Source: a virus (taxonomy: Duplodnaviria > Caudoviricetes). Taken from it: a DNA stretch of 29,867 nt. The stretch covers positions 1 through 29,867 of IMG/VR virus record IMGVR_UViG_3300025368_000016; one strand, 5' to 3'. A model generated the notes under the pieces. It saw only the letters and a program-made list of their open reading frames with translations, had not been told where the DNA came from and did no database searches. The translations under genes were made by a program, and so were the position numbers. Positions 5,220 through 29,770 of this stretch are shown in pieces; position 1 is the stretch's first letter, and each line of letters opens with the position of its first letter.

Positions 5220-5836
5220 GGCGCGAACGTGATCGTCCCGTGGGTGGTGAAGGAAGTGGACAGCACGACGCTGCCCGAGCCGGTGGACGTGGTCACGCCC
5301 GTGCCGCCGTTGGTGACCGGCAACACGCCAGTCGGCCCGACACTGCTGCTGATCGTAATGCCGCCGGCCGTGTTGGAGATGCCGACGTTGAGGCCCGCGG
5401 TCAAATTGGCGACCGTGTATCCCGACCCATTGCCGATCAGCAGTTGACCGTTGGCGGGAATGGTTGAAACGCCCGTGCCGCCGTTGGCCGGCGTCAGCGG
5501 CGTCGTCAGCACCAACGTCGGGATCGTCACACCCGTAGCGGACACCTGCATCTGGAGGATGCTGTTGACGAGGAATTGCAGCGGCAACCCTGGCGTGCCG
5601 TAGACGTTGAGGTAGGCCGCGTTCGATGACACGCCCAGACCCAGCGTGGTGTAGGTTCCGGCGAACGGCCAGGGGGTCGCGCTGTTTGTGATGGCCAGCG
5701 GAGTCCCGCCATTGCCGTAGAGCCCGAGGCTGTTGACCGCCGGTTCGGTCGCAGTTCCGCCGTCTTGGATGACGCCATCCGTCGCCCAGATCGAAACATG
5801 GCCGGGGGTGACGATGCCACCCTGCTGGACGGTCAC
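5216..5836 (-). CDS. Short tail-fibre protein, 206 aa, paralogous to the N-terminus of the long fibre
   Basis: GTG start with GAGGAG SD. PGHVSIWATDGVIQDGGT vs PGHLAAWTTSGVLQDAGT; both contain NGQLLIGNG.GY. Confidence 0.85.
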   Translation of the reverse strand: MTVQQGGIVTPGHVSIWATDGVIQDGGTATEPAVNSLGLYGNGGTPLAITNSATPWPFAGTYTTLGLGVSSNAAYLNVYGTPGLPLQFLVNSILQMQVSATGVTIPTLVLTTPLTPANGGTGVSTIPANGQLLIGNGSGYTVANLTAGLNVGISNTAGGITISSSVGPTGVLPVTNGGTGVTTSTGSGSVVLSTSFTTHGTITFAP

Positions 5837-19983: not shown

Positions 19984-20604
19984 ATGATACCTGTGTATTC
20001 ACACAGCGGGAGCATACACTTGGTTACGCACGCCCCGAGGATTTGCCGCACATGCAGCGCCGAATTTGTACCCGCCGGGCCGCGGCAGATATTCTGCCGA
20101 ACGTCCTGCAACGTCGAGGGCAAAAATCGGCTGCGGGCCAAGTGCCGGGAAAGATGGGCTTCCAACGAAGAGTTTCGGTTGCGTCGAAGGAAATCCCGAA
20201 ACTCTTGGGCCGAAAACAACCCTGCGGCTTTCCAGGCTTTTATAGACAAGCAATTCCAAAAAATCCGCATAGACGAACCCTGGAAAGCCTTGCTGTACTC
20301 GAGCAAAAGCCGTTGTGCAAAACGCGGGCAGCCTTTCGGCTTGACCGAAACTTGGGCGAAAGACCGCTGGACCGGAAAATGCGAACTAACCGGCATACCG
20401 TTTTCGCTGGGTCGCAAAAAACAGGAACCGCGCGTTTTTTCACCAAGCATCGACCAGATCCGCCCCGGCGCCGGGTACACGACCGATAATTGCCGATTCG
20501 TGCTCTGGGCAGTCAATGCGCTCAAAGCAGACGGCAACGACGACAACATGTACCAGATCGCCGAGGCGCTCATGATCAAAAAGCGCTCCCTTGGAACCCG
20601 GTGA
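19984..20604 (+). CDS. HNH-like (beta-beta-alpha-metal) endonuclease-family protein with N-terminal Zn ribbon, 206 aa
   Basis: GAGAGG SD; CRTC...FCRTSC; CELTGIPF...SPSIDQIRPGAGYTTDNCRFVLWAVNALK; lower GC than its flanks. Confidence 0.75.
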   Translation: MIPVYSHSGSIHLVTHAPRICRTCSAEFVPAGPRQIFCRTSCNVEGKNRLRAKCRERWASNEEFRLRRRKSRNSWAENNPAAFQAFIDKQFQKIRIDEPWKALLYSSKSRCAKRGQPFGLTETWAKDRWTGKCELTGIPFSLGRKKQEPRVFSPSIDQIRPGAGYTTDNCRFVLWAVNALKADGNDDNMYQIAEALMIKKRSLGTR

Positions 20605-21601
20605 TAATTGCGTTTGCGGAAGGTTTCGAGGTGATGACGTTGTAGCCGAGCACTGTAACGCCCTGCTGGCCGATCTGGCCCAGCGGCACCAACGAATAGA
20701 ACCCAGAGAAGTCGAACGCCGCGTCCTCGCTCATGTAGAACGAGGTGTAGCGAGAATTGATGAAGAAGGCGGACCCCTTCGGGCAGAAGTGGTCGGCAAA
20801 GATCGGAATGCCAGCGATGTTGACGTTCGGGAAGGACGACCGCACCGGAGTGCCCATCGTGCCTTCCTGGCCCGGCCGGGTGAAGATCTGCTCGACGCCG
20901 ATGAACGAGTTGTTCAGGGTCGAGAAGTCGCCCGGGTTCATCACGCCGAACGTCGGCGCCTCGCCGCCAGCCGCATCGGTAATCTGAATGATGTACTGCG
21001 ACATCGTCTGACGCGTGAACCCGGAGGTCAGCGTCGAGGCGTTGTAGTACTGACCCTTCCAGTTGGCGTTGCCCGCAGACAGGCGGTTGATGCCGCCGTA
21101 GGTCGGGTAGTTCACGCCGTTGTCGAAGCCGTCCGCGAAGCCGTTCGGCTGCAGCGGGTTGGCGCCCGTGTTGCCCGAGAACATCAGCGGCGCGAGGTTC
21201 TGCACGGAGACGGCGTACACGTCATTCATGCGGGCCTTGAGAAGCGAAATCTCGCGGTCGGTTGCCTGGATCACCGTTTCGCCAAACGGCAGCGGCACCG
21301 GGACCACCCAATAGCAGGTGTTCCACTGTGCGTTCTGCACGCCCGGCGTGATGTTGGGCTGGTTGAAGCCGCCGCCGTAGCCGGTGAACTGGCCCTGCAC
21401 CATGGACTGGCCCTGGGTCGGAATGGTAATCTGCGACATGCCGCCCGCCACTTTCTGGGCGTTGCCCATCATGTAGAAGAACGTCGGGGTCGCGTAGTAC
21501 ATCTGCACGAAGAGCTTCGGAACGAATGCGCGGCGAGTGACCGCCGTCAGTTCGTTGTAAAGGGCTCCTGTGGGGGCTGCACCGGTACCGGGGATCGGCA
21601 T
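20576..21601 (-). CDS. Major capsid protein, 341 aa
   Basis: AAGGAG SD, strong codon bias, size and position after the scaffold; GIPIFADHFCPKGSAFFINSRY resembles an HK97-fold C-terminal region. Confidence 0.85.
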   Translation of the reverse strand: MPIPGTGAAPTGALYNELTAVTRRAFVPKLFVQMYYATPTFFYMMGNAQKVAGGMSQITIPTQGQSMVQGQFTGYGGGFNQPNITPGVQNAQWNTCYWVVPVPLPFGETVIQATDREISLLKARMNDVYAVSVQNLAPLMFSGNTGANPLQPNGFADGFDNGVNYPTYGGINRLSAGNANWKGQYYNASTLTSGFTRQTMSQYIIQITDAAGGEAPTFGVMNPGDFSTLNNSFIGVEQIFTRPGQEGTMGTPVRSSFPNVNIAGIPIFADHFCPKGSAFFINSRYTSFYMSEDAAFDFSGFYSLVPLGQIGQQGVTVLGYNVITSKPSANAIITGFQGSAF

Positions 21602-21616: not shown

Positions 21617-22192
21617 TTACCGACCGCGCACCTGGCGCAGCGTGGTGTTGATCAGACTGTCCAGCGCCATCGGATCGTCGGGGTTGGCGAAGAGCTTCTG
21701 CATCTCCTCGCCGCCGCGGTTGTCCGGCTCGAACAGATCGAACCGATTGGCGCCCACGCTCTTGACCGGCTCGGCCGGCGGATGGAGACGCTCGAAAGCG
21801 GCGGCCGCGACCTCATGATCCGCGATGCCCTTCTCCTCCATGAACTTCTCGACTTCGGTCAGGCCCTCGTCGGTGTAGCCGTTGGCGCGCAGCCTGTTGC
21901 GGCCACGGTCCCAGGTCTGCTGCAGCTTTTCCATACGCTGCTGCTTCTCGCGCTCGGCCCGCTCGTCGGCGAGCTGCTGCGCCAGCGTGTCAAAGCGCTT
22001 GGTGATCTCGCTGATCTCGGTGCGCAGCGGCTCGTGCGCGTCCAGCTCGGGGATGACCAGATCCGGGTTCAGCGTCTTCTGGGCCTCCAGAACCTTGCGG
22101 CGCGTGGCCGGGTTGTTCAGGAGCTTCTGCATGGTCTCAGTGACCTGGCGGTGCGCCGCCCACTCGCTGGCTTCGACTTCGATCAGGGCCAT
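21617..22192 (-). CDS. Probable scaffolding protein, 191 aa
   Basis: Charged coiled-coil (LAQQLADERAEREKQQRMEKLQQ) directly upstream of the capsid gene. Confidence 0.7.
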   Translation of the reverse strand: MALIEVEASEWAAHRQVTETMQKLLNNPATRRKVLEAQKTLNPDLVIPELDAHEPLRTEISEITKRFDTLAQQLADERAEREKQQRMEKLQQTWDRGRNRLRANGYTDEGLTEVEKFMEEKGIADHEVAAAAFERLHPPAEPVKSVGANRFDLFEPDNRGGEEMQKLFANPDDPMALDSLINTTLRQVRGR

Positions 22193-22197
22193 GGAGA

Positions 22198-22365
22198 TCA
22201 GCCCTTATTCGGGACGTGCGAGATGGACATGTCGCCGGACTTCTGCGAGTTTGGCAGATGGCTCTTGCGACCGCCCACGTCGAGCTGGTCCATCGGGGTG
22301 CGCACGATCTGCGAGTCGGTGCCGCGCGGAATGGACTTCGTGGTGTCCTGGAAAATGTTGACCAT
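22198..22365 (-). CDS. Small hypothetical protein, 55 aa
   Basis: Not in the ORF track. TAAGGA SD, ATG at 22365, MVNIFQDTTKSIPRGTDSQIVRTPMDQLDVGGRKSHLPNSQKSGDMSISHVPNKG, TGA at 22200-22198; fills the gap exactly. Confidence 0.75.
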   Translation of the reverse strand: MVNIFQDTTKSIPRGTDSQIVRTPMDQLDVGGRKSHLPNSQKSGDMSISHVPNKG

Positions 22366-22377
22366 GTGCGTCGTTCC

Positions 22378-22806
22378 TTACTGAGCGGGAGGTGACATTC
22401 CGCCGCCGGCACCGCCGGCACCGCCGCCCGGAGGCTGCATGGCGCGAACAGCCGCGATCTGCGGCGACATCTGCTGGTTGCGCTGCATCAGCGCTTCGAG
22501 CGTGCTTTGCTGCACGCCAGAGGGGACCGACCCCTCGGGAATGTGCTTGAGAAGAGCGTGGACGGCCTTGACGACATCCTTGCCGACCTCGGACGAGATG
22601 CCGAGCGTCTTGACAGCGTCCTCAAGAATGCGGACAGCCACGGCCACGCGGGACAACCCCGCAGCTTCCATTCCCCGGTTGGGGGTGGGCTGCGAAACCG
22701 GGGAGGAGCCAAAAGGCGGCTGACCCGGATTCGACCCGGCACCCGGTGCTGCGGCTGCAGCAGGCGGGGCCGAGGGGGCTGCGGCTTGACCGAGGCTGCC
22801 CGACAT
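22378..22806 (-). CDS. Hypothetical head-region protein, 142 aa
   Basis: Pro/Gly-rich termini around a helical core; located between portal and scaffold. Confidence 0.75.
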   Translation of the reverse strand: MSGSLGQAAAPSAPPAAAAAPGAGSNPGQPPFGSSPVSQPTPNRGMEAAGLSRVAVAVRILEDAVKTLGISSEVGKDVVKAVHALLKHIPEGSVPSGVQQSTLEALMQRNQQMSPQIAAVRAMQPPGGGAGGAGGGMSPPAQ

Positions 22807-22810
22807 GGTC

Positions 22811-22846
22811 TTACTTGCGACCCTTGCGGTGCATCTTGCGAGCCAT
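22811..22846 (-). CDS. 11-aa basic micropeptide MARKMHRKGRK
   Basis: AGGAGG SD 5 nt before the ATG at 22846; TAA at 22813-22811; next gene starts 4 nt later. Confidence 0.6.
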   Translation of the reverse strand: MARKMHRKGRK

Positions 22847-22857
22847 GGTACCCTCCT

Positions 22858-22964
22858 GGCACTCAGTTGATCCGGCCGAACGCGAAAGCGATCGACACCG
22901 AGGGGGCTCCTCTCCCAACAACCGCCGCCCAGGGTCTTGCGACTCGGGAGGACAACTGCCTCGG
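22858..22964 (-). ncRNA. Candidate structured RNA / 5' leader of the head genes
   Basis: Closing helix CAGTTGTCC (22958-50) / GGATCAACTG (22873-64); GTC-GCAA-GAC GNRA hairpin (22943-34); hairpin GTCGATCGC-TTTC-GCGTTCGGC (22896-75). Folded by eye only. Confidence 0.4.
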
Positions 22965-22989
22965 ATGACTATCGGTAAACCCAAAGCCG

Positions 22990-23018
22990 TTGACGGAGAT
23001 ACATCACGGTTGTAGCGT
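22990..23018 (+). promoter_or_regulatory. Sigma70-type promoter for the HTH gene (predicts a leaderless mRNA)
   Basis: TTGACG (22990-95), 17-bp spacer, TAGCGT (23013-18); the ATG A is 7 nt after the -10 element and there is no SD. Confidence 0.6.
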
Positions 23019-23024
23019 GTTGGC

Positions 23025-23222
23025 ATGATTGCTTCGCGCTGGATCACGGTGAAAGAAGTGGCCGCGCTTTGCGGGGTCTCCAGAGCCTATTTGCTGCGCC
23101 ATCGGCAGGACGGCCACGCGCCGCCGCATCACCGCCGCGGGCGAAATATTCTCTACGACCGGGAAGAAGTGGGCGCCTGGATCGAAAGCCAACGCGTCGG
23201 AGGCCAGCAAGCGCGCAGCTAG
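23025..23222 (+). CDS. AlpA/excisionase-type helix-turn-helix DNA-binding protein, 65 aa
   Basis: WITVKEVAALCGVSRAYL...G..PP...RGRNILYDREEVGAWI matches the MerR-like winged HTH pattern of AlpA/Xis proteins. Confidence 0.85.
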   Translation: MIASRWITVKEVAALCGVSRAYLLRHRQDGHAPPHHRRGRNILYDREEVGAWIESQRVGGQQARS

Positions 23223-24871
23223 TGCTTGCCTTTGCCCTTTCCGAGCAGCTCCGGGTGCTCCTGAATCATTTTCGCTTTCTGTTGCTGCATCTCGGCATAG
23301 CGCTGCTTAAGAATGTCCTTCTGCGGGAACGGCAGCATCTCGATCGCGCTCTCGCCGCCGATGAACCCCGACTTGAGGCCGAACGCGATCAGCTGCTGGT
23401 GGTTGTCGGCGAAGATCGGGCTCGACGAATGGCTGTCCACGATCACGCGGCGGTCTTCCGGCAGGTCGTGCAGCAAGAACCCCTTTTTGTCCTCGGTCAT
23501 GTATTCCTGGGCGTCTTTAGCCTGCAAGAGATCCAACGTCTTGTCCGCCATTGCTGCGCACTGGCGCTCAACCAGCAACGACCGGTCCCGCAGCCGCGGT
23601 GAGGCCATCTTGGACAGCGTCTCCGCGTGATTGCCGGATCGCACGCCCATCTCGCCCTGCCCAGACAGGATGTTAGAGAACCCGGACACTTCCTCCATGA
23701 ACTTGTTCAGCGTGTCGATTGCCTGGAACGTCTGCGGCGGCAGCCCGGGCGTGAGATCGTTCACGCTGGCGCCCGCCGGCAGATCGACGTAGCCGGCCGC
23801 GCGGAACTCATCGTATTTTTCGTCGGTGATGCCGTCCGCGCCCACAAAGGCAAGAATCTTATCGAACTGCACGCCCATCAAACGCCGCAGATCGTCCATC
23901 CACGTGGCCAAAAGACCCTGGGGCTCCATAAGGTCTACGATCTCCGACCGGCCCCAGAAATACCCGGCCGTCTGATTCGGCTGCACCAGGCTGAACGGTT
24001 GAGTCTTCGGAGCGAACATATTCTCGCGCTTGAAATACGGGCTGACGAGGATGTCCGGTTCGATCAGCAGAACCGTCGTGTAGTCCTCGCGCTCATCGTC
24101 CTTCACCCACAGCTCGTGGAACGGCACAAGGTCAATGTTGACCTGAGGCCCGACCATGGACCCGCCGCCAGTCCCGGCCAGCTGCACGACGCCGCCCGGC
24201 GTCTGCCGCGCGCTCTCAATGCCGGTCGTGTTGAGGATGCTGGTGGACAGGACGTTGTGGAAGAAATTGCCGTTCAGCGTCTCGGTTGTCTCGCGGCTGG
24301 CGTTCGCCCGGATGCGCGTGAACATGGACTCGGCATCCGGCAGATGACTGATCCGCCGCCACACCTCGGGCAGCGTCATCAGGCCGCTCTCACACAGCGC
24401 TTCCTGCTCCTCGATGCTGTTGATGTCCTCGCGATAGACACCGAACTGCCAGGGCATGACGACGCGGGCTTCCACACCGGAGTGGCCCCACATCTGCTTC
24501 ATGATGGCGCCGCCGTATTGGAGCGCCAGATTGACGGCGTTGCCAAACTGGACATCGATGTCCTTGCGCTCCCACTCGCGCGTCAGCACGCGAGCCGCGA
24601 CCTCTCCCTTGGCCAACACGTCCGCTGCGTAATGCGCCTCGTAGTCCAGCACGAACCGCAACTCGGCCGGGCTGAACAAGTGCGACTGCAGCCGGTCCAC
24701 GTGAGCGAACAGCTTGTTCACGAGGGCGCGTTGCCCCGAGTCCCGCCCGGTTTCGACCCAGAGGTTGTGAACCCGGCACAGCGCCGCCCGCTGGCCGGCC
24801 GATGCGCGGCAGGCCTCCTTGATGTTGAGCACCTGGCGCAGAAGTTCGGTTTTGCTCGACGGCAGAATCAT
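23219..24871 (-). CDS. Portal protein, 550 aa
   Basis: Size and position between terminase and head genes; EEVSGFSNILSGQGEMGVRSG resembles P22-like portal motifs. Confidence 0.85.
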   Translation of the reverse strand: MILPSSKTELLRQVLNIKEACRASAGQRAALCRVHNLWVETGRDSGQRALVNKLFAHVDRLQSHLFSPAELRFVLDYEAHYAADVLAKGEVAARVLTREWERKDIDVQFGNAVNLALQYGGAIMKQMWGHSGVEARVVMPWQFGVYREDINSIEEQEALCESGLMTLPEVWRRISHLPDAESMFTRIRANASRETTETLNGNFFHNVLSTSILNTTGIESARQTPGGVVQLAGTGGGSMVGPQVNIDLVPFHELWVKDDEREDYTTVLLIEPDILVSPYFKRENMFAPKTQPFSLVQPNQTAGYFWGRSEIVDLMEPQGLLATWMDDLRRLMGVQFDKILAFVGADGITDEKYDEFRAAGYVDLPAGASVNDLTPGLPPQTFQAIDTLNKFMEEVSGFSNILSGQGEMGVRSGNHAETLSKMASPRLRDRSLLVERQCAAMADKTLDLLQAKDAQEYMTEDKKGFLLHDLPEDRRVIVDSHSSSPIFADNHQQLIAFGLKSGFIGGESAIEMLPFPQKDILKQRYAEMQQQKAKMIQEHPELLGKGKGKH

Positions 24872-24973: not shown

Positions 24974-25480
24974 CTAACGCTTCCGCGCGACCTGCTTCCA
25001 ATCTGTCACCAACGTGCCTTCAAGGCCGCAGGTTGACAAAACCTCCGCATTGTAGGCCCCGAATGCGGCCAGGCAGACGGGCGCCCCCGAGTTGGCCGGC
25101 TGCGGCGTGCCGTCTGGTGTGCAGAACGATATCCGCTTCCGCAGAAACAGCACGGCGTTGGCGTCCTTCCAGATCGGCTGAAACCAGTCCGTCTCGACAC
25201 GAGCGTGAATCAGCGCAATGCCGTCTCCGTGCGCGGCCAGCCGACCGATCCACGTGCCGACCACGCGGCGGTCGAACGGCGGGTTCAACCAGACGCGGCC
25301 GTGCCACCGTTTGCTCAGACCGTCGTCCGCAAACGCCAGATTGTGCTTCGCGCAGTCCCACGGCCGAGGATCGGCCGCGCACGGGTCCAAATCAAACACC
25401 CCCAGACGATCCAGCAGACTTCGTGGCGTCAGATGCGTCTGCGACAGGCCAATGGCGCGCTGGTGGCTTCCGAGAGTCAT
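24974..25480 (-). CDS. Phage DNA N6-adenine methyltransferase (phage Dam-like family), 168 aa
   Basis: ATG at 25480; TP...FDLDPCA, DGL...W.GRVWLNPPF catalytic motif, ARVETDWF. Confidence 0.88.
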   Translation of the reverse strand: MTLGSHQRAIGLSQTHLTPRSLLDRLGVFDLDPCAADPRPWDCAKHNLAFADDGLSKRWHGRVWLNPPFDRRVVGTWIGRLAAHGDGIALIHARVETDWFQPIWKDANAVLFLRKRISFCTPDGTPQPANSGAPVCLAAFGAYNAEVLSTCGLEGTLVTDWKQVARKR

Positions 25481-25484
25481 GCGC

Positions 25485-26009
25485 CTAATGCTTCCCCAAA
25501 TTGCCCGCAGCAGCCACGCGGGGCGCCACGGCGGCGTGCTGCTGGACCACGCCCTGCATCGCCGACACGCCGGCCCCGGCATAGGGTCCGACCCGCGTGG
25601 ACCTAGCGTACTCGGCTGCGGTCGACTGATCCATGTGCCCGCCCGCGCCCGTCTGCGCCATGAACGTGGACACGGGGTTGCTGACCGCGGCGACCGATGT
25701 CTCGCCCTCGCGGGCGTTGTCACGCATGTTGGTGATGCGCATCGCGCCCATGTCGGCGGCACTCTCGCCCAGGGCCTCGGCCGCCAACTCGGCACGGTGC
25801 GCGGAACTGTCCTCCATCGCCCGATAGACGTTGTCGGCCACCTTGCCGATCGACTTGGCCACGTGTGGGGCGGACAGCTCGGGCGCGGTGCCTGTCATGT
25901 CAGCGCCGCAGAGGACGCACCGGTTCGGCGGCTCCTCCGTCGAGCGCATGTGGAGATGGTCGAAATAGCCCTCGCAGTCCGGGCATTGGTAAGTGCGGAT
26001 CACGGGCAT
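25485..26009 (-). CDS. FmdB-like zinc-ribbon protein, 174 aa
   Basis: ATG at 26009; MPVIRTYQCPDCEGYFD...RCVLCG. Confidence 0.8.
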   Translation of the reverse strand: MPVIRTYQCPDCEGYFDHLHMRSTEEPPNRCVLCGADMTGTAPELSAPHVAKSIGKVADNVYRAMEDSSAHRAELAAEALGESAADMGAMRITNMRDNAREGETSVAAVSNPVSTFMAQTGAGGHMDQSTAAEYARSTRVGPYAGAGVSAMQGVVQQHAAVAPRVAAAGNLGKH

Positions 26010-26011
26010 GG

Positions 26012-26173
26012 TTAGCGGGCCTTCTTCTTCGCCGCGCGCATGTTGTCCACGAGGTTCGGATACGGTCGGCCCGCGGCGGCAGCGGCTTTTTTGGCCGCCG
26101 TCTTCTGCGCTGGCGTCAGCGCGGTGGATGTCTTCTTGGGGCTTTTCGTGCCCCACACCGGCTTCCTGCTCAT
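26012..26173 (-). CDS. Small basic protein, 53 aa (GRPYPNLVDNM motif)
   Basis: Not in the ORF track. ATGA overlap with the terminase stop, GGAGGGG SD; MSRKPVWGTKSPKKTSTALTPAQKTAAKKAAAAAGRPYPNLVDNMRAAKKKAR. Confidence 0.8.
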   Translation of the reverse strand: MSRKPVWGTKSPKKTSTALTPAQKTAAKKAAAAAGRPYPNLVDNMRAAKKKAR

Positions 26174-28134
26174 CTGCCCCTCCAGGCCATGCGAGCCGCG
26201 AGCGCCGCGGCGGCGCGTCGGTCAGCCTGCTTCCCCTTGAAATACTGGTTCAGGCTGTGCGTGGCCAGCAAAGAAAACTGGTCCTGCATGGACAGCCTGG
26301 TGCGCGCGATCTCCGACTCCCGCGTTCGGTTCGACGCGATCAGCGGCCGGCGCTCGTATTGCTCCCAGCACAGCACCGCCATCGCCAAGGCCAGCACGCG
26401 GTCGTCGTGGTCGTCGCCCTCGGCCTTGATGCTGTCGCCGTCCCGCGTGACCACGCGGAGTTCGTCGATTGCGTCGCGCGACCGCAGGATGATGCCGCCG
26501 TTGGTAACAAAGTCGCGCAGGCGCTCCATCATGGCGACCTTGTTGACGCCGGTCGTTTTCCAGTGAACCGAGCCTTGCCCTGGCACGACCGCGTCCGGCC
26601 GCGTGTAGAGGTAGTTCTTGCAGTTGACGAAAAAATTCTTGAGGCCTTGCTCGTCCGCCTCTTTTTTGAGGTAGCCGCTGCTGACGATGCGCTTGAGGCT
26701 CTGGTATTCCTGCCACACCGCGACGCCGGGCCCGTTGATCTCCAGCATGAGGCGCGTGTTCTTGTACCAGCCCATCAGCGACGCCAGCACCCAGGCAAAC
26801 TGGTGTGGTTGCACGTTGGTGGACGCGAACTCGCCGACCTGTTCGATCTTGTCGGCATAGCAGCGCATGATCTGCGCGGCGCTGCGGTCGTTGTGCTCGT
26901 TGGCGCCGTAGGCCGGGTCGGCGGCCACGATGTAGACGCCCTCGGGCTTTGGCTCTTCCCAGATCTTTAACTGGATCTGACGCCGATGCCGCGCCGGCTC
27001 AATCGACATGCTAATAAAATCGGCGCCCGTGTAGAACATCCACGATTTGAAGTCGTCGCTCGCGGTGGTCTTGCTGATCTCCGTCAGCTTGTCCGACGAG
27101 AAGAAATTGCTCCCGTCGGTGGTAAACATCTCTTCCTCGACCCACGGGTGCTCGCGGCCCTGGTACTCGTCGTAGGCGATGCTGTCGTCCGAATCGCCTT
27201 CGTCGTCCTCGCCGTAGCCGAGCGGATTGGTTTCCTTGCGATACCACGCCAGCTGCTCGCGCGTGACCTTCCAGCCGTAGCGCTCCTCGACCTCGGCAAT
27301 GCGCTTCGCCTCTTCCTTCGTCACGGGTGGCGAGCCGAACTTCTCGAACTGCGCCGTGTGCGCCCGGATGCGGTGCGTCGGGACTAGATACCAGCCGGTG
27401 AAGATCGTGGCCTCTTCCAGATCGTTCGCCTTGGCCTTCTGCCAGAGCTTGTACCAATCCGAGCCCACGTTGCGGCCGGTGGACTCCCACAGGAACAGCC
27501 GGTTGGGGTTCTCGACCGCTAGCGACTTGCGAAACGACGACAGGCCCTCCGGGTTGTTGTAGGTGCCGACCTCGGACGCATGGACCATCGTGATGCCCTG
27601 GCCGCGGCCCAGCGCCCCGCCGCCCGCCGTCTGCTTCACGCCGGCCGACAGGAAAGTCACGGTGCTGCCGTTGCTGAACCTGCCGCCGTATCGGTTGGAC
27701 TTGAAGCTCGGAAACCGCAGCTTCGCCGGCAGGCTCGCCAAGGTGTACTCGACCTCGGTGCGCGCTTCGCTCATGTGCTGCGCCGTGTCCAGCAGGAACG
27801 CGCCGCGGGAGCCGGGGTGCAGCGCGATCCACATGGAGCTGAACGGACGGCAGATTGTCGAGATGCCCTGCTGACGACCCTTGCCCCATTTGAAATCATG
27901 GATCCCGCGTTGCAGACCGGAGAATACCTCGTCCAGGCCCCGCTCCTGCGCCGGGTAAAGTTGCCCACCCAGGACGATCTCGCCCTTCTCCTTCGACGGG
28001 ATCACGCAGTAGTTGAGGAACTCTAAAAACACTTCTTTGTAGGCTTTGGCTTTGTCGGCGGACCAGACTTCCCCCGTGTCCTCCAGGTGGTAGTCGCGAG
28101 TGTGGACTGCCGGAGCCTCAATCTCCTCACTCAT
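26170..28134 (-). CDS. terL: Terminase large subunit, 654 aa
   Basis: Walker A-like KGRQQGIST, Walker B-like MVHASE, coupling motif EST, RNase H-like nuclease residues ADPAYG / DRSA / HDDRVLA; ATG at 28134 in an ATGA overlap. Confidence 0.92.
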   Translation of the reverse strand: MSEEIEAPAVHTRDYHLEDTGEVWSADKAKAYKEVFLEFLNYCVIPSKEKGEIVLGGQLYPAQERGLDEVFSGLQRGIHDFKWGKGRQQGISTICRPFSSMWIALHPGSRGAFLLDTAQHMSEARTEVEYTLASLPAKLRFPSFKSNRYGGRFSNGSTVTFLSAGVKQTAGGGALGRGQGITMVHASEVGTYNNPEGLSSFRKSLAVENPNRLFLWESTGRNVGSDWYKLWQKAKANDLEEATIFTGWYLVPTHRIRAHTAQFEKFGSPPVTKEEAKRIAEVEERYGWKVTREQLAWYRKETNPLGYGEDDEGDSDDSIAYDEYQGREHPWVEEEMFTTDGSNFFSSDKLTEISKTTASDDFKSWMFYTGADFISMSIEPARHRRQIQLKIWEEPKPEGVYIVAADPAYGANEHNDRSAAQIMRCYADKIEQVGEFASTNVQPHQFAWVLASLMGWYKNTRLMLEINGPGVAVWQEYQSLKRIVSSGYLKKEADEQGLKNFFVNCKNYLYTRPDAVVPGQGSVHWKTTGVNKVAMMERLRDFVTNGGIILRSRDAIDELRVVTRDGDSIKAEGDDHDDRVLALAMAVLCWEQYERRPLIASNRTRESEIARTRLSMQDQFSLLATHSLNQYFKGKQADRRAAAALAARMAWRGR

Positions 28135-28328
28135 GCGTCCCGCTCCCCTGCGCCGTCGCACGCCGGGCAGTCCAGCACGACCGTTGACAGCTTGGCGGCG
28201 CGCAACAGCGTGGCCGTCAGAAGATCTCCGCTCCGCTCCATCCGGTCGGCCGTGCGTTGCCGCTCGTCCTCGGTCTCGGCGCGCAGAAAGATACCCGTGC
28301 CCTCGCAGGTGTTGCACTTCACCGCCAC
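28131..28328 (-). CDS. Small Zn-finger protein with two CxxCxGxG motifs, 65 aa
   Basis: CNTCEGTG and CPACDGAG; GGAGG SD. Confidence 0.7.
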   Translation of the reverse strand: MAVKCNTCEGTGIFLRAETEDERQRTADRMERSGDLLTATLLRAAKLSTVVLDCPACDGAGERDA

Positions 28329-28573
28329 GCCCGGCCTCCCGCGCGTTCTTGCATTCCGGCCTTCAACTCGTTGATCGCCAGCTCCACCTGACCCTGCACG
28401 CTCGACCAGAACACCGCAGGGTTCGGATTGGACGTGGTCGCGATCGCGTCAATCGTGATCATGGGGTCGCTCGGGGGGACAATCACGAACACGCCACCGA
28501 ACGTGCCCCGGGCGGCGTCGAGCTGGTCAGCGATGGCGCGCAAGGCGGTCGCGGCGTCCGCGTGTGTGGTCAT
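28319..28573 (-). CDS. Hypothetical protein, 84 aa
   Basis: Tightly packed in the operon with plausible composition. Confidence 0.7.
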   Translation of the reverse strand: MTTHADAATALRAIADQLDAARGTFGGVFVIVPPSDPMITIDAIATTSNPNPAVFWSSVQGQVELAINELKAGMQERAGGRAWR

Positions 28574-28576
28574 CGC

Positions 28577-28801
28577 TCAGCCCCCTTCCAGATACCGGTG
28601 CTTGAACCGGTTCTTGACGTTCGCGTGCAGCGCGGCGCCGACGCTCGGGGCCGTCTGCACCTGGCTCGCGACGCCCGGAGGCACGCCCTCGTAGATTACG
28701 GTTTTGCCGTTCGTGTAGACGACGTGCAACTCGCCGGAGGCGGTGTCATAGCCCACGGTGCTGACGTGGCTGCTGAACACGGGCTTGTGGCTCACGGGCA
28801 C
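28577..28801 (-). CDS. KTSC-domain protein, 72-74 aa
   Basis: SSHVSTVGYD...LHVVYTNG...Y.GVP...APSVGAALHANVK matches the KTSC pattern. Confidence 0.88.
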   Translation of the reverse strand: MPVSHKPVFSSHVSTVGYDTASGELHVVYTNGKTVIYEGVPPGVASQVQTAPSVGAALHANVKNRFKHRYLEGG

Positions 28802-28808
28802 GGGCTGA

Positions 28809-28888
28809 TCCTCTCGTGAAGCTCAATGCTGGCCATCAGACGGTCCTCTCGTGAAGCTCAATGCTGGCCATCAGACGGTCCTCTCGTG
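28809..28888. repeat. 35-bp exact tandem repeat, 2.3 copies
   Basis: TCCTCTCGTGAAGCTCAATGCTGGCCATCAGACGG at 28809 and 28844, plus TCCTCTCGTG at 28879. Confidence 0.97.
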
Positions 28889-29596
28889 GCGTTGCGGTTT
28901 CTGGTCGGCATGAGCGGCCTTCAACATCCTCTCCACCTGGGTTGGCGCGAACGGACGGCCGGTGCGGCCGACATATCCCAGATCCTCCAGCCGGTAGGAG
29001 ATGCGCCTGAACGAGAGGCCAGTCTTGCGCAAGCTGACGGCCTCGTCAAGTATCCGGCGTTCGGCCGGGTTGGCCACAAGCCTCGCGTCACGGCCCGCCC
29101 CCTCGACCTGATAGCCGAACGGCGCCTCGCCGCCGGCAAACCCGCCCGACCGCTGCTTGGCCCGCTTGCCGTCCATCACGCGCTCCGCGATACGGGTGCG
29201 CTCGAACTCGGCGAACGCCGCCAGCATCGTGAAAAACAGCTTTGCCACGCCGTTCTCCGTCACCGGATCGGGCCCCATGTCGGCAATCACGAGTTTGACG
29301 CTCATCTCCTGGAGCCGGCCCGCGGTGGCGAGGGCGTCCTGCGCGCTGCGGAAGATGCGGTCCATCTTGGCCGCGATCACGGTGTCGCCGGGCTTCAACG
29401 CCGCCAACATCTCGGCCCCGCCCGGGCGCTGGCTGATCGGAGTGCCGCCGCTGACGCCCGGGTCGGAAAACACACGGGTGATCTCCTCGCCGCGCATCAG
29501 GGCGGCCCCGGTGATGCGGCGGACCTGGTCGTCAAGAGAACTGCGGTCGGTGGCCTGCTCGGTCGTTGAGACGCGAACGTAGGCATAGATGCTCAT
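28871..29596 (-). CDS. Serine recombinase (resolvase/invertase catalytic domain plus short recombinase-type DNA-binding domain), 241 aa
   Basis: YVRVST (catalytic Ser), DPGVSG, RPG, KMDRIFRS, FAEFERTRIAER, GGEAPFGY; GGAG SD. Confidence 0.93.
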   Translation of the reverse strand: MSIYAYVRVSTTEQATDRSSLDDQVRRITGAALMRGEEITRVFSDPGVSGGTPISQRPGGAEMLAALKPGDTVIAAKMDRIFRSAQDALATAGRLQEMSVKLVIADMGPDPVTENGVAKLFFTMLAAFAEFERTRIAERVMDGKRAKQRSGGFAGGEAPFGYQVEGAGRDARLVANPAERRILDEAVSLRKTGLSFRRISYRLEDLGYVGRTGRPFAPTQVERMLKAAHADQKPQRHERTV

Positions 29597-29770
29597 CAAA
29601 ATCTCCGTCGTCTAGGGGGGTAAGGGGTGGAAATTACTGATCGTTGGCGGAGGATTACTGGTCGCTACCCGCCGTTAGCGGGCGTTACGGCGGAAAACGG
29701 AAAAATTTATGGGGGGCGTAGGGTTGGGTGTCCCCGAATCCTCCAACTTTGCGTCCCGGCGCCAAGCGGG

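Follow-up and report, generated by a model that had tools for sequence, protein, structure and literature searches.

The window is the whole stretch of DNA analysed here, 29,867 nucleotides long. Its minus strand carries an 11-codon Arg/Lys micro-ORF directly ahead of the head genes. Conservation across related contigs shows that this micro-ORF is a real gene, kept across a large, uncultured family of tailed phages. It follows a leader that forms a conserved two-helix RNA in its branch of the family. In a freshwater branch, the same kind of peptide gene follows an H-type pseudoknot of an unrelated RNA class. From their placement and pairing, both RNAs likely control translation initiation of the peptide. 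By analogy with known autogenous systems, the peptide possibly regulates its own synthesis.

Head genes of the window

The window is a virus record that is 47% complete. The minus-strand gene order is terminase, portal, divergent HTH gene, leader, micro-ORF, 142-aa gene, 55-aa ORF, scaffold-like gene, and major capsid gene. The portal protein (23219..24871, -) has 30-31% identity to the annotated portals of MW202825 and MW202753. The 142-aa gene (22378..22806, -) is Pro/Ala/Gly rich, lacks a Shine-Dalgarno (SD) sequence of its own, and starts 4 nt past the peptide stop. Family searches gave no match for it, and a PHROG search gave none for the 55-aa ORF (22198..22365, -). A 191-aa acidic protein (21617..22192, -) is probably scaffold-like, judged by its position; its scaffold family match is a lead only (score 0.88). 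The major capsid protein (20576..21601, -) has an HK97 fold. It matches PHROG 9953 (E=2e-18) and, by Foldseek, phage capsids (best E=2.6e-10). A sequence search for a solved structure found none for this protein.

Only two relatives were found among 50,697 phage records, both of them metagenomic. Their identity to the window is 35-36% in the capsid protein and 30-31% in the portal protein. A blastn search with the window leader returned no match in the phage records.

The divergent gene (23025..23222, +) encodes an excisionase-like HTH_17 protein (PF12728, E=3e-12). Back to back with the leader is a candidate promoter for it, TTGACG-17-TAGCGT (22990..23018, +), which has 8 of 12 matches and is below threshold in the promoter scan. 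The ATG of the HTH gene lies 7 nt past this element (window 22990-23222, +). This arrangement suggests a leaderless repressor-type mRNA that adjoins the leader back to back. GTCAA occurs upstream in 31 of 67 leaders, against a background of 16%.

Micropeptide gene

The micro-ORF (22811..22846, -) has 11 codons, MARKMHRKGRK, followed by TAA. Its SD sequence is AGGAGG (22852..22857, -). An earlier note on this DNA had reported both, and both were confirmed when re-read from the sequence. An SD-like motif precedes the peptide family-wide.

Homologous loci were collected by capsid homology. The best 80 of 98 loci were used, and 75 were testable. The peptide rule asked for an SD-led ORF of 8-25 codons with at least 40% Arg+Lys directly before the 142-aa homolog. 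Such an ORF precedes the head genes in 69 of the 75 capsid-anchored loci, so the position is kept across the family. The background of the rule is 16 matches in 1.31 Mb of other sequence, or 0.012 per kb. Among the six misses, L077, L079, L080, and L099 show an Arg/Lys ORF behind a variant SD; the remaining two are L100 and L101.

A DNA pattern for MAR...RKGRK-stop listed at least 120 loci (approximately 210 estimated). A regular expression that misses 10-codon forms re-found 90 of these loci, all in frame. In total, 226 coding sequences with 149 distinct peptides of 9-24 residues were collected. The 149 peptides contain 31% Arg and 24% Lys (55% K+R), and 14 of their 2,028 residues are acidic. 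Single-base codon differences are synonymous in 2,208 cases and replacements in 273 (818 unfiltered equal-length pairs). A C-terminal R-K-x-R-[KR] pattern is conserved. Length (9-24 aa), N terminus, and copy number vary freely. In L257, L267, L271, L273, and their relatives, the peptides are 20-24 aa long, with repeated Met-Ala-x-Lys units ahead of the RKGRK end.

The peptide site lies between the portal and capsid genes in the loci examined, in two branches that are approximately 35% identical in the capsid protein. Both GenBank relatives (MW202825 and MW202753) contain two unannotated peptide copies each; antisense ORFs are annotated there instead. A 482-nt contig of a near relative (depth 3.2, RNA-library run X1) extends from within the leader through the peptide to the 142-aa gene. 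This contig documents presence in an RNA library only. The portal lacked cover and L303 had none, and neither counts as evidence.

A leader peptide was among the readings of the earlier note. A classical attenuator peptide is not supported by the locus: a terminator scan of 22300-23400 found none, the next gene starts 4 nt past the stop, and the Arg codons are abundant rather than rare. CGU/CGC make up 74% of Arg codons in the capsid-anchored set, and AGA/AGG make up 2%. AGA, AGG, and CGA together are 5% of peptide Arg codons, compared with 12% in the capsid genes and 11% in the portal genes of the same loci.

Copies and coupling to the next gene

Among 67 distinct leaders of the window's branch, 51 have the start of the next gene within -4 to +12 nt of the peptide stop, and 2 show an SD belonging to that gene. 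This spacing and the missing SD point to translational coupling, and the 142-aa gene is likely coupled to the peptide. Two or three peptide copies occur in 9 of the 67 leaders (spurious row L062 left out).

In the freshwater branch, an upstream peptide copy is present in 112 of the 120 pseudoknot loci listed. The downstream copy is retained there, though the next long gene is 55-142 nt away. TTGAC stands between the downstream copy and the next gene in 85 of 93 cases. Tandem copies and retention when uncoupled from the next gene suggest that the peptide product matters beyond its translation.

Window-type leader RNA

We collected 17 distinct window-type leaders. These were the window, 10 found by protein homology, 1 from a metagenome scan, and 5 found later with a relaxed pattern. 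The metagenome pattern scan covered half of the collection and listed at least 121 loci (approximately 250 estimated). It gave mostly chance matches: 7 of 120 regex matches were true leaders, and only L182 was new. The hits L116, L120, and L028 were also chance matches. A K/R ORF follows all 17 leaders, and the 142-aa homolog is present in all six pattern-found loci.

Pairing was examined with a duplex test, in which each strand was scored against its own partner and against permuted partners from other leaders. The test corrects only in part for relatedness among leaders; p values were similar after thinning to 14 leaders. This test was used because column-based covariation was partly blinded by the P1 3' strand, which shifts one column between rows. 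Column-based scores for the window-type RNA never rose above shuffles (47, 458, and 277 of 500 shuffles), and the 47/500 run used the wrong P1 register.

The best-supported helix is P1, which the earlier note had drawn as an alternative pairing. It joins CCGAGG (22959..22964, -) to CCUCGG (22898..22903, -). The two strands covary with p<0.0001 in 17 leaders, and p=0.008 in the five later-found leaders alone, which is the minimum possible.

P2 is directly stacked on P1. Its 5' strand is CAGUUGUC (22951..22958, -), and its 3' strand is GGCGGUUG (GGCGGYUG; 22919..22926, -). The 3' strand is the most conserved stretch of the leader, with invariant columns, and its motif played no part in finding 11 of the 17 leaders. 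The five inner pairs of P2 are paired in 83 of 85 cells (17 leaders), and where they vary, C-G and U·G replace each other. No pair of P2 changes on both sides (p=0.42), and the helix is conserved, not covarying.

P2 encloses a variable hairpin, P2b (22928..22948, -), which has a GCAA tetraloop in the window. A hairpin is present here in 12 of 12 leaders examined (p=0.0008), and its loop sequence is variable. The GNRA hairpin of the earlier note is thus present in the window, but a GNRA loop was seen by eye in 7 of 12 leaders and the stem sequence varies. Between P2 and P1 lies a purine-rich junction (22907..22918, -) with an invariant GAGGA at 22912-22908. GAGGA is found in 17 of 17 leaders, and it was the search anchor for 6 of them.

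The third hairpin (22875..22896, -) that the earlier note had drawn exists in the window and L003 only. It is a lineage-specific insertion: the distance from P1 to the AUG is 123 nt with it and 88-108 nt in the other 15 leaders. It is deleted in the RNA-library contig of the near relative. An A/C-rich linker ahead of the SD contains CAAC (22866..22869, -), which occurs in 39 of 67 leaders against a background of 16%.

Other parts of the earlier drawing did not hold. Its closing helix, 22958-50 with 22873-64, had p=0.61 and reached -7.1 kcal/mol in the window and -4.3 or weaker in the other 11 leaders. Its pairing of CTCCC with GGGAG had p=0.94 in 12 leaders and 0.79 in 17. Folding energy was proposed there as a check, and it does not distinguish the leader from shuffles (z=+0.65 for 165 nt; -0.93 to +0.67 for five sub-regions). 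Across leaders it was no better, with a best z of -2.4 in L082 and +0.15 in the window. The hexamer GATAGT, suggested as a -10 element, is not conserved as such, and a sigma-70 promoter scan for the leader found none above threshold. What stood was the general claim of an undescribed cis RNA ahead of a micropeptide gene, with a fold that differs from the one drawn.

The suggested Rfam search returned no family match. Rfam 15 gave 0 matches in the window and 0 at E<=10 in 22750-23060. It also gave 0 matches in 14 related loci covering both RNA classes.

Three further candidates were rejected. HDV-like ribozymes have a nested double pseudoknot, which here would require GGUUG:CAAC pairing. Three leaders have GGCUG opposite an unchanged CAAC, and the CAGUUG:CAAC helix had p=0.61. 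An internal uORF from GAGGAG has a GUG start in the window and L003 that is absent in L020 (by eye). By eye, the CsrA-type loop that would enclose the SD is not retained across leaders.

Comparison of the 17 leaders indicates that the window-type leader is a conserved two-helix RNA of this branch. The fold is missing from 56 of the 67 distinct capsid- or portal-anchored leaders that carry the peptide. A third leader motif was seen in L009, L012, L055, L057, L096-L099, L103, and L104. It consists of a short AACC/GGTT hairpin with an A-rich loop, then a variable stem, approximately 40-90 nt before the peptide start.

Alternative fold and candidate SD pairing

A pyrimidine tract (22947..22952, -) overlaps both P2, at its end, and the first positions of the variable hairpin. 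It is a candidate anti-SD. The tract matches its own SD in the duplex test with p=0.0004 in 17 leaders and 0.0002 in 14 thinned leaders. A sliding control showed that the complementarity of the tract peaks only at the SD, and control pairings in the same test had p=0.79 and 0.84. Pairing of the tract with GAGGA in the window-type RNA did not covary (p=0.79). The alternative helix P5 joins the 3' half of the variable hairpin to the 3' strand of P1. Its p value was 0.0006 in 17 leaders and 0.11 in the five later-found leaders alone.

In L031, L037, L039, L082, L089, and L495, anti-SD and SD match over 7-10 bp and carry lineage-specific changes. L495 is a later-found leader with a 10-bp match. 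The window's anti-SD pairing amounts to 6 bp at -9.6 kcal/mol, and 26% of other GGAR 13-mers do equally well. The pairing is also weak in L083, L125, and four of the five later-found leaders (p=0.21 in the five). Constrained folds differ by -9.4 to +4.9 kcal/mol between fold A and fold B in 12 leaders, and the window favors the open fold A by 7.4 kcal/mol. A separate local hairpin lies over the SD in L030 (3735-3771), and a similar one is present in L182.

Given the weak anti-SD of the window and of these other leaders, an SD switch is likely in part of the window-type group but no more than a candidate in the window itself. The peptide occurs without the window-type RNA in 56 of 67 leaders, so the switch is not required family-wide.

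Freshwater-branch pseudoknot

Homology places the freshwater branch in the same phage family, with 79 of 80 long loci matching the portal, 142-aa, or scaffold homologs of MW202753. It contains an H-type pseudoknot between two K/R micro-ORFs (L250:4500-4547, L251:4519-4568, and L252-L491). In 36 distinct sequences, 97.7% of cells are paired and five pairs change on both sides. Covariation was 0.335 versus 0.129, a value reached by 0 of 500 shuffles. Tandem U·G/G·U pairs are invariant in 36 of 36 sequences and lie partly inside the regex used for collection.

An SD-led K/R ORF follows 115 of the 120 pseudoknot matches listed (approximately 460 viral contigs estimated). Of the other five, two are cut by contig ends yet show the ORF, and three are chance matches. 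The distance from the pseudoknot end to the SD of the second peptide copy is 6-12 nt in 96 of 96 cases. Covariation with an anti-SD was looked for in this class and none was found.

The two RNAs belong to unrelated classes by fold and by model search. A covariance model of the window-type RNA (R2), run on 85 sources, recovered nothing below E=1 beyond the 12 leaders it was trained on. The pseudoknot model (R1), run on 75 sources, missed the window-type leaders. The freshwater pseudoknot is an undescribed and strongly covarying RNA, and counts as a separate finding.

A conserved 54-aa basic ORF lies directly after the portal gene and before the first micro-ORF (L250:4258-4422). It is present in 102 of the 120 pseudoknot loci listed. 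The branch also has a G/C hairpin abutting a TTGACA box, 3' of the second micro-ORF.

Proposed function of the peptide and its RNAs

Neutralization of packed DNA in tailed phages is usually credited to host polyamines and metal ions. Basic internal proteins serve in a few, such as T4. The earlier note had offered a protamine-like, DNA-condensing peptide as one reading. Judged from the sequences, this reading appears to fit best with the composition, gene position, tandem copies, and retention when uncoupled.

Our tentative model combines a minimal protamine-like head polycation with an RNA translational switch that free peptide turns off. The peptide would be needed in bulk at head assembly and packed into the head, where it would neutralize DNA. 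Fold A (P1, P2, and P2b) would leave the SD free; ribosomes would translate the peptide and then start again on the 142-aa gene, which has no SD. Formation of P5 between the variable hairpin and the P1 3' strand would give fold B, in which the freed pyrimidine tract would mask the SD. Once DNA and proheads had taken up their share, excess peptide would attach to the G·U-rich helix and reduce initiation, in the manner of T4 gp32 on its pseudoknot operator. The simplest ligand common to both RNA classes would be the peptide itself, again as with gp32. The stronger form, in which a stand-alone protamine gene of 9-24 residues evolved two unrelated RNA sensors that bind the peptide and meter it against DNA awaiting packaging, appears somewhat unlikely.

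A strictly cognate RNA-peptide pair, another proposal of the earlier note, is weakened because a similar peptide follows at least two unrelated RNA folds. In addition, 56 of 67 leaders lack the window fold.

The peptide might instead act inside the infected cell, binding ribosomes, RNA, or DNA, with the RNA setting its level or timing. Basic peptides of the eL41/bTHX type and arginine-rich-motif factors are models for such a role. The composition would suit any nucleic-acid binder, the conserved C-terminal pattern suggests a defined contact, and the freshwater copies end the portal transcript, separate from the scaffold/capsid promoter. However, the gene lies between portal and capsid in both branches examined, and its free variation in length, N terminus, and copy number looks like bulk charge rather than a fitted ligand. 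We consider a role in the cell somewhat improbable.

Riboswitch-like sensing of a metabolite, ion, or host protein could also gate the head operon, with the peptide ORF mainly loading ribosomes for the 142-aa gene. The two mutually exclusive folds and the coupling geometry described above are consistent with this, and the invariant unpaired GAGGA and fixed G-rich P2 strand go beyond pairing needs. A loading cistron, however, explains neither the K/R conservation nor the tandem copies nor retention when uncoupled. Both unrelated RNA classes precede the peptide and no metabolic gene, and neither matches an Rfam family. We regard this as unlikely.

Least likely are static RNAs that stabilize the mRNA 5' end or hold the SD open to raise output, with a partly incidental anti-SD: P1 and P2 are kept in 5 of 5 later-found leaders and the anti-SD in 1 of 5, the pseudoknot class lacks an anti-SD, and the window prefers the open fold, but matched changes with the own SD in at least six lineages, covariation of P5, and the invariant tandem U·G/G·U pairs, odd for a pure stabilizer, argue against them.

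Comparison with known systems

SD-sequestering riboswitches and leaders have a conserved core together with a variable hairpin, and pairing of their anti-SD is incompatible with the core fold. The window-type RNA has a core, a variable hairpin, and a candidate anti-SD of this kind. Unlike those riboswitches, it has no Rfam match (at gathering score or E<=10), and its anti-SD is present in approximately half of members. Lambda N is a protein of approximately 100 aa in the N/boxB arginine-rich-motif system. The window resembles this system in placing an Arg-rich peptide beside a GNRA-type hairpin. It differs from boxB in that hairpin loop and stem vary and most family peptides have no such hairpin.

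T4 gene 32 is described as having an autogenous translational operator, with a pseudoknot and a UUAAA-repeat tract of >40 nt, that is bound by its product gp32 (PMC535899). By analogy, the peptide loci share a folded RNA 5' of the ribosome binding site and a candidate nucleic-acid-binding product, with a pseudoknot in the freshwater branch. Here the product is 9-24 aa, and repression is predicted only. The window-type RNA stacks two helices and has a candidate anti-SD; a pseudoknot is not supported in it. In the freshwater branch, 6-12 nt separate the pseudoknot from the SD, and a UUAAA-repeat tract of >40 nt is missing.

Adenovirus core peptide mu/X is described as 19 aa cut from a 79-aa precursor (PMC7998265). 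Microvirus J/VP8 is described as a very small basic product of ssDNA phages (PMC11945456). The peptide resembles both in being very small and very basic with few acidic residues, and it lies within head genes. Unlike mu, it is directly encoded with its own SD, start, and stop, and it has no longer precursor. Unlike mu and J, it belongs to a tailed HK97-fold phage, often in tandem copies with a structured RNA ahead, and its place in the virion is predicted.

T4 internal proteins are reported to contact packaged DNA through lysines, and T4 IPI* is reported to be an anti-restriction protein of 76 aa that is folded and carries a capsid-targeting sequence (PMC3012670). The basic residues of the peptide are like those that contact DNA in that tailed phage head. 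Unlike IPI*, the peptide has too few residues to fold and shows no evident targeting sequence.

Novelty and significance

Literature searches found no description of this peptide family, and no paper was found containing any of six representative peptide strings. Fremin et al. reportedly compiled a phage small-gene catalogue in 2022. Alignments of 8,495 IMG/VR candidate RNAs are described in PMC10690425. Within that paper's material, a search of supplementary files 3-6 gave no match. An unnamed entry for one of the RNAs or for the peptide may already exist in those alignments or in a small-gene catalogue.

The peptide gene is among the shortest conserved phage genes. It occurs in hundreds of uncultured phage contigs and was overlooked in the annotation of both GenBank relatives. 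If the protamine-like reading is correct, a dedicated polycation gene of 9-24 codons would add a protamine-like solution to DNA packing. If the feedback is also real, the leader would be an RNA switch that senses, as its ligand, the 11-residue peptide encoded behind it. Both RNA folds are short, well defined, absent from Rfam, and easily synthesized, so the feedback idea can be tested in vitro without phage culture.

Other features of the window and related loci

Members of the family occur in four genome bins (L125-L128), assigned to a deltaproteobacterium, Ca. Acidoferrum, and two Patescibacteria. L125 has a window-type leader. These contigs may be misbinned phage contigs, and no host is therefore assigned from them.

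A quick tree of capsid proteins requires two changes for the window-type leader and places L083 on a long branch. The capsid gene of L088 (5001-6056) has an in-frame stop, either an error or a broken gene, and L088 was left out of the protein alignment because of this internal stop. L003 contains a tRNA-Met-like sequence between the portal and HTH genes (5650-5730, -; by eye).

In the window, an HNH/endonuclease VII-like gene (19984-20604, +; PHROG 3322, E=6.5e-24) lies antisense, directly after the major capsid gene. At 24974-29599, the terminase gene is flanked by genes for a Dam-type methyltransferase, a zinc-ribbon protein, a KTSC protein, and a serine resolvase.
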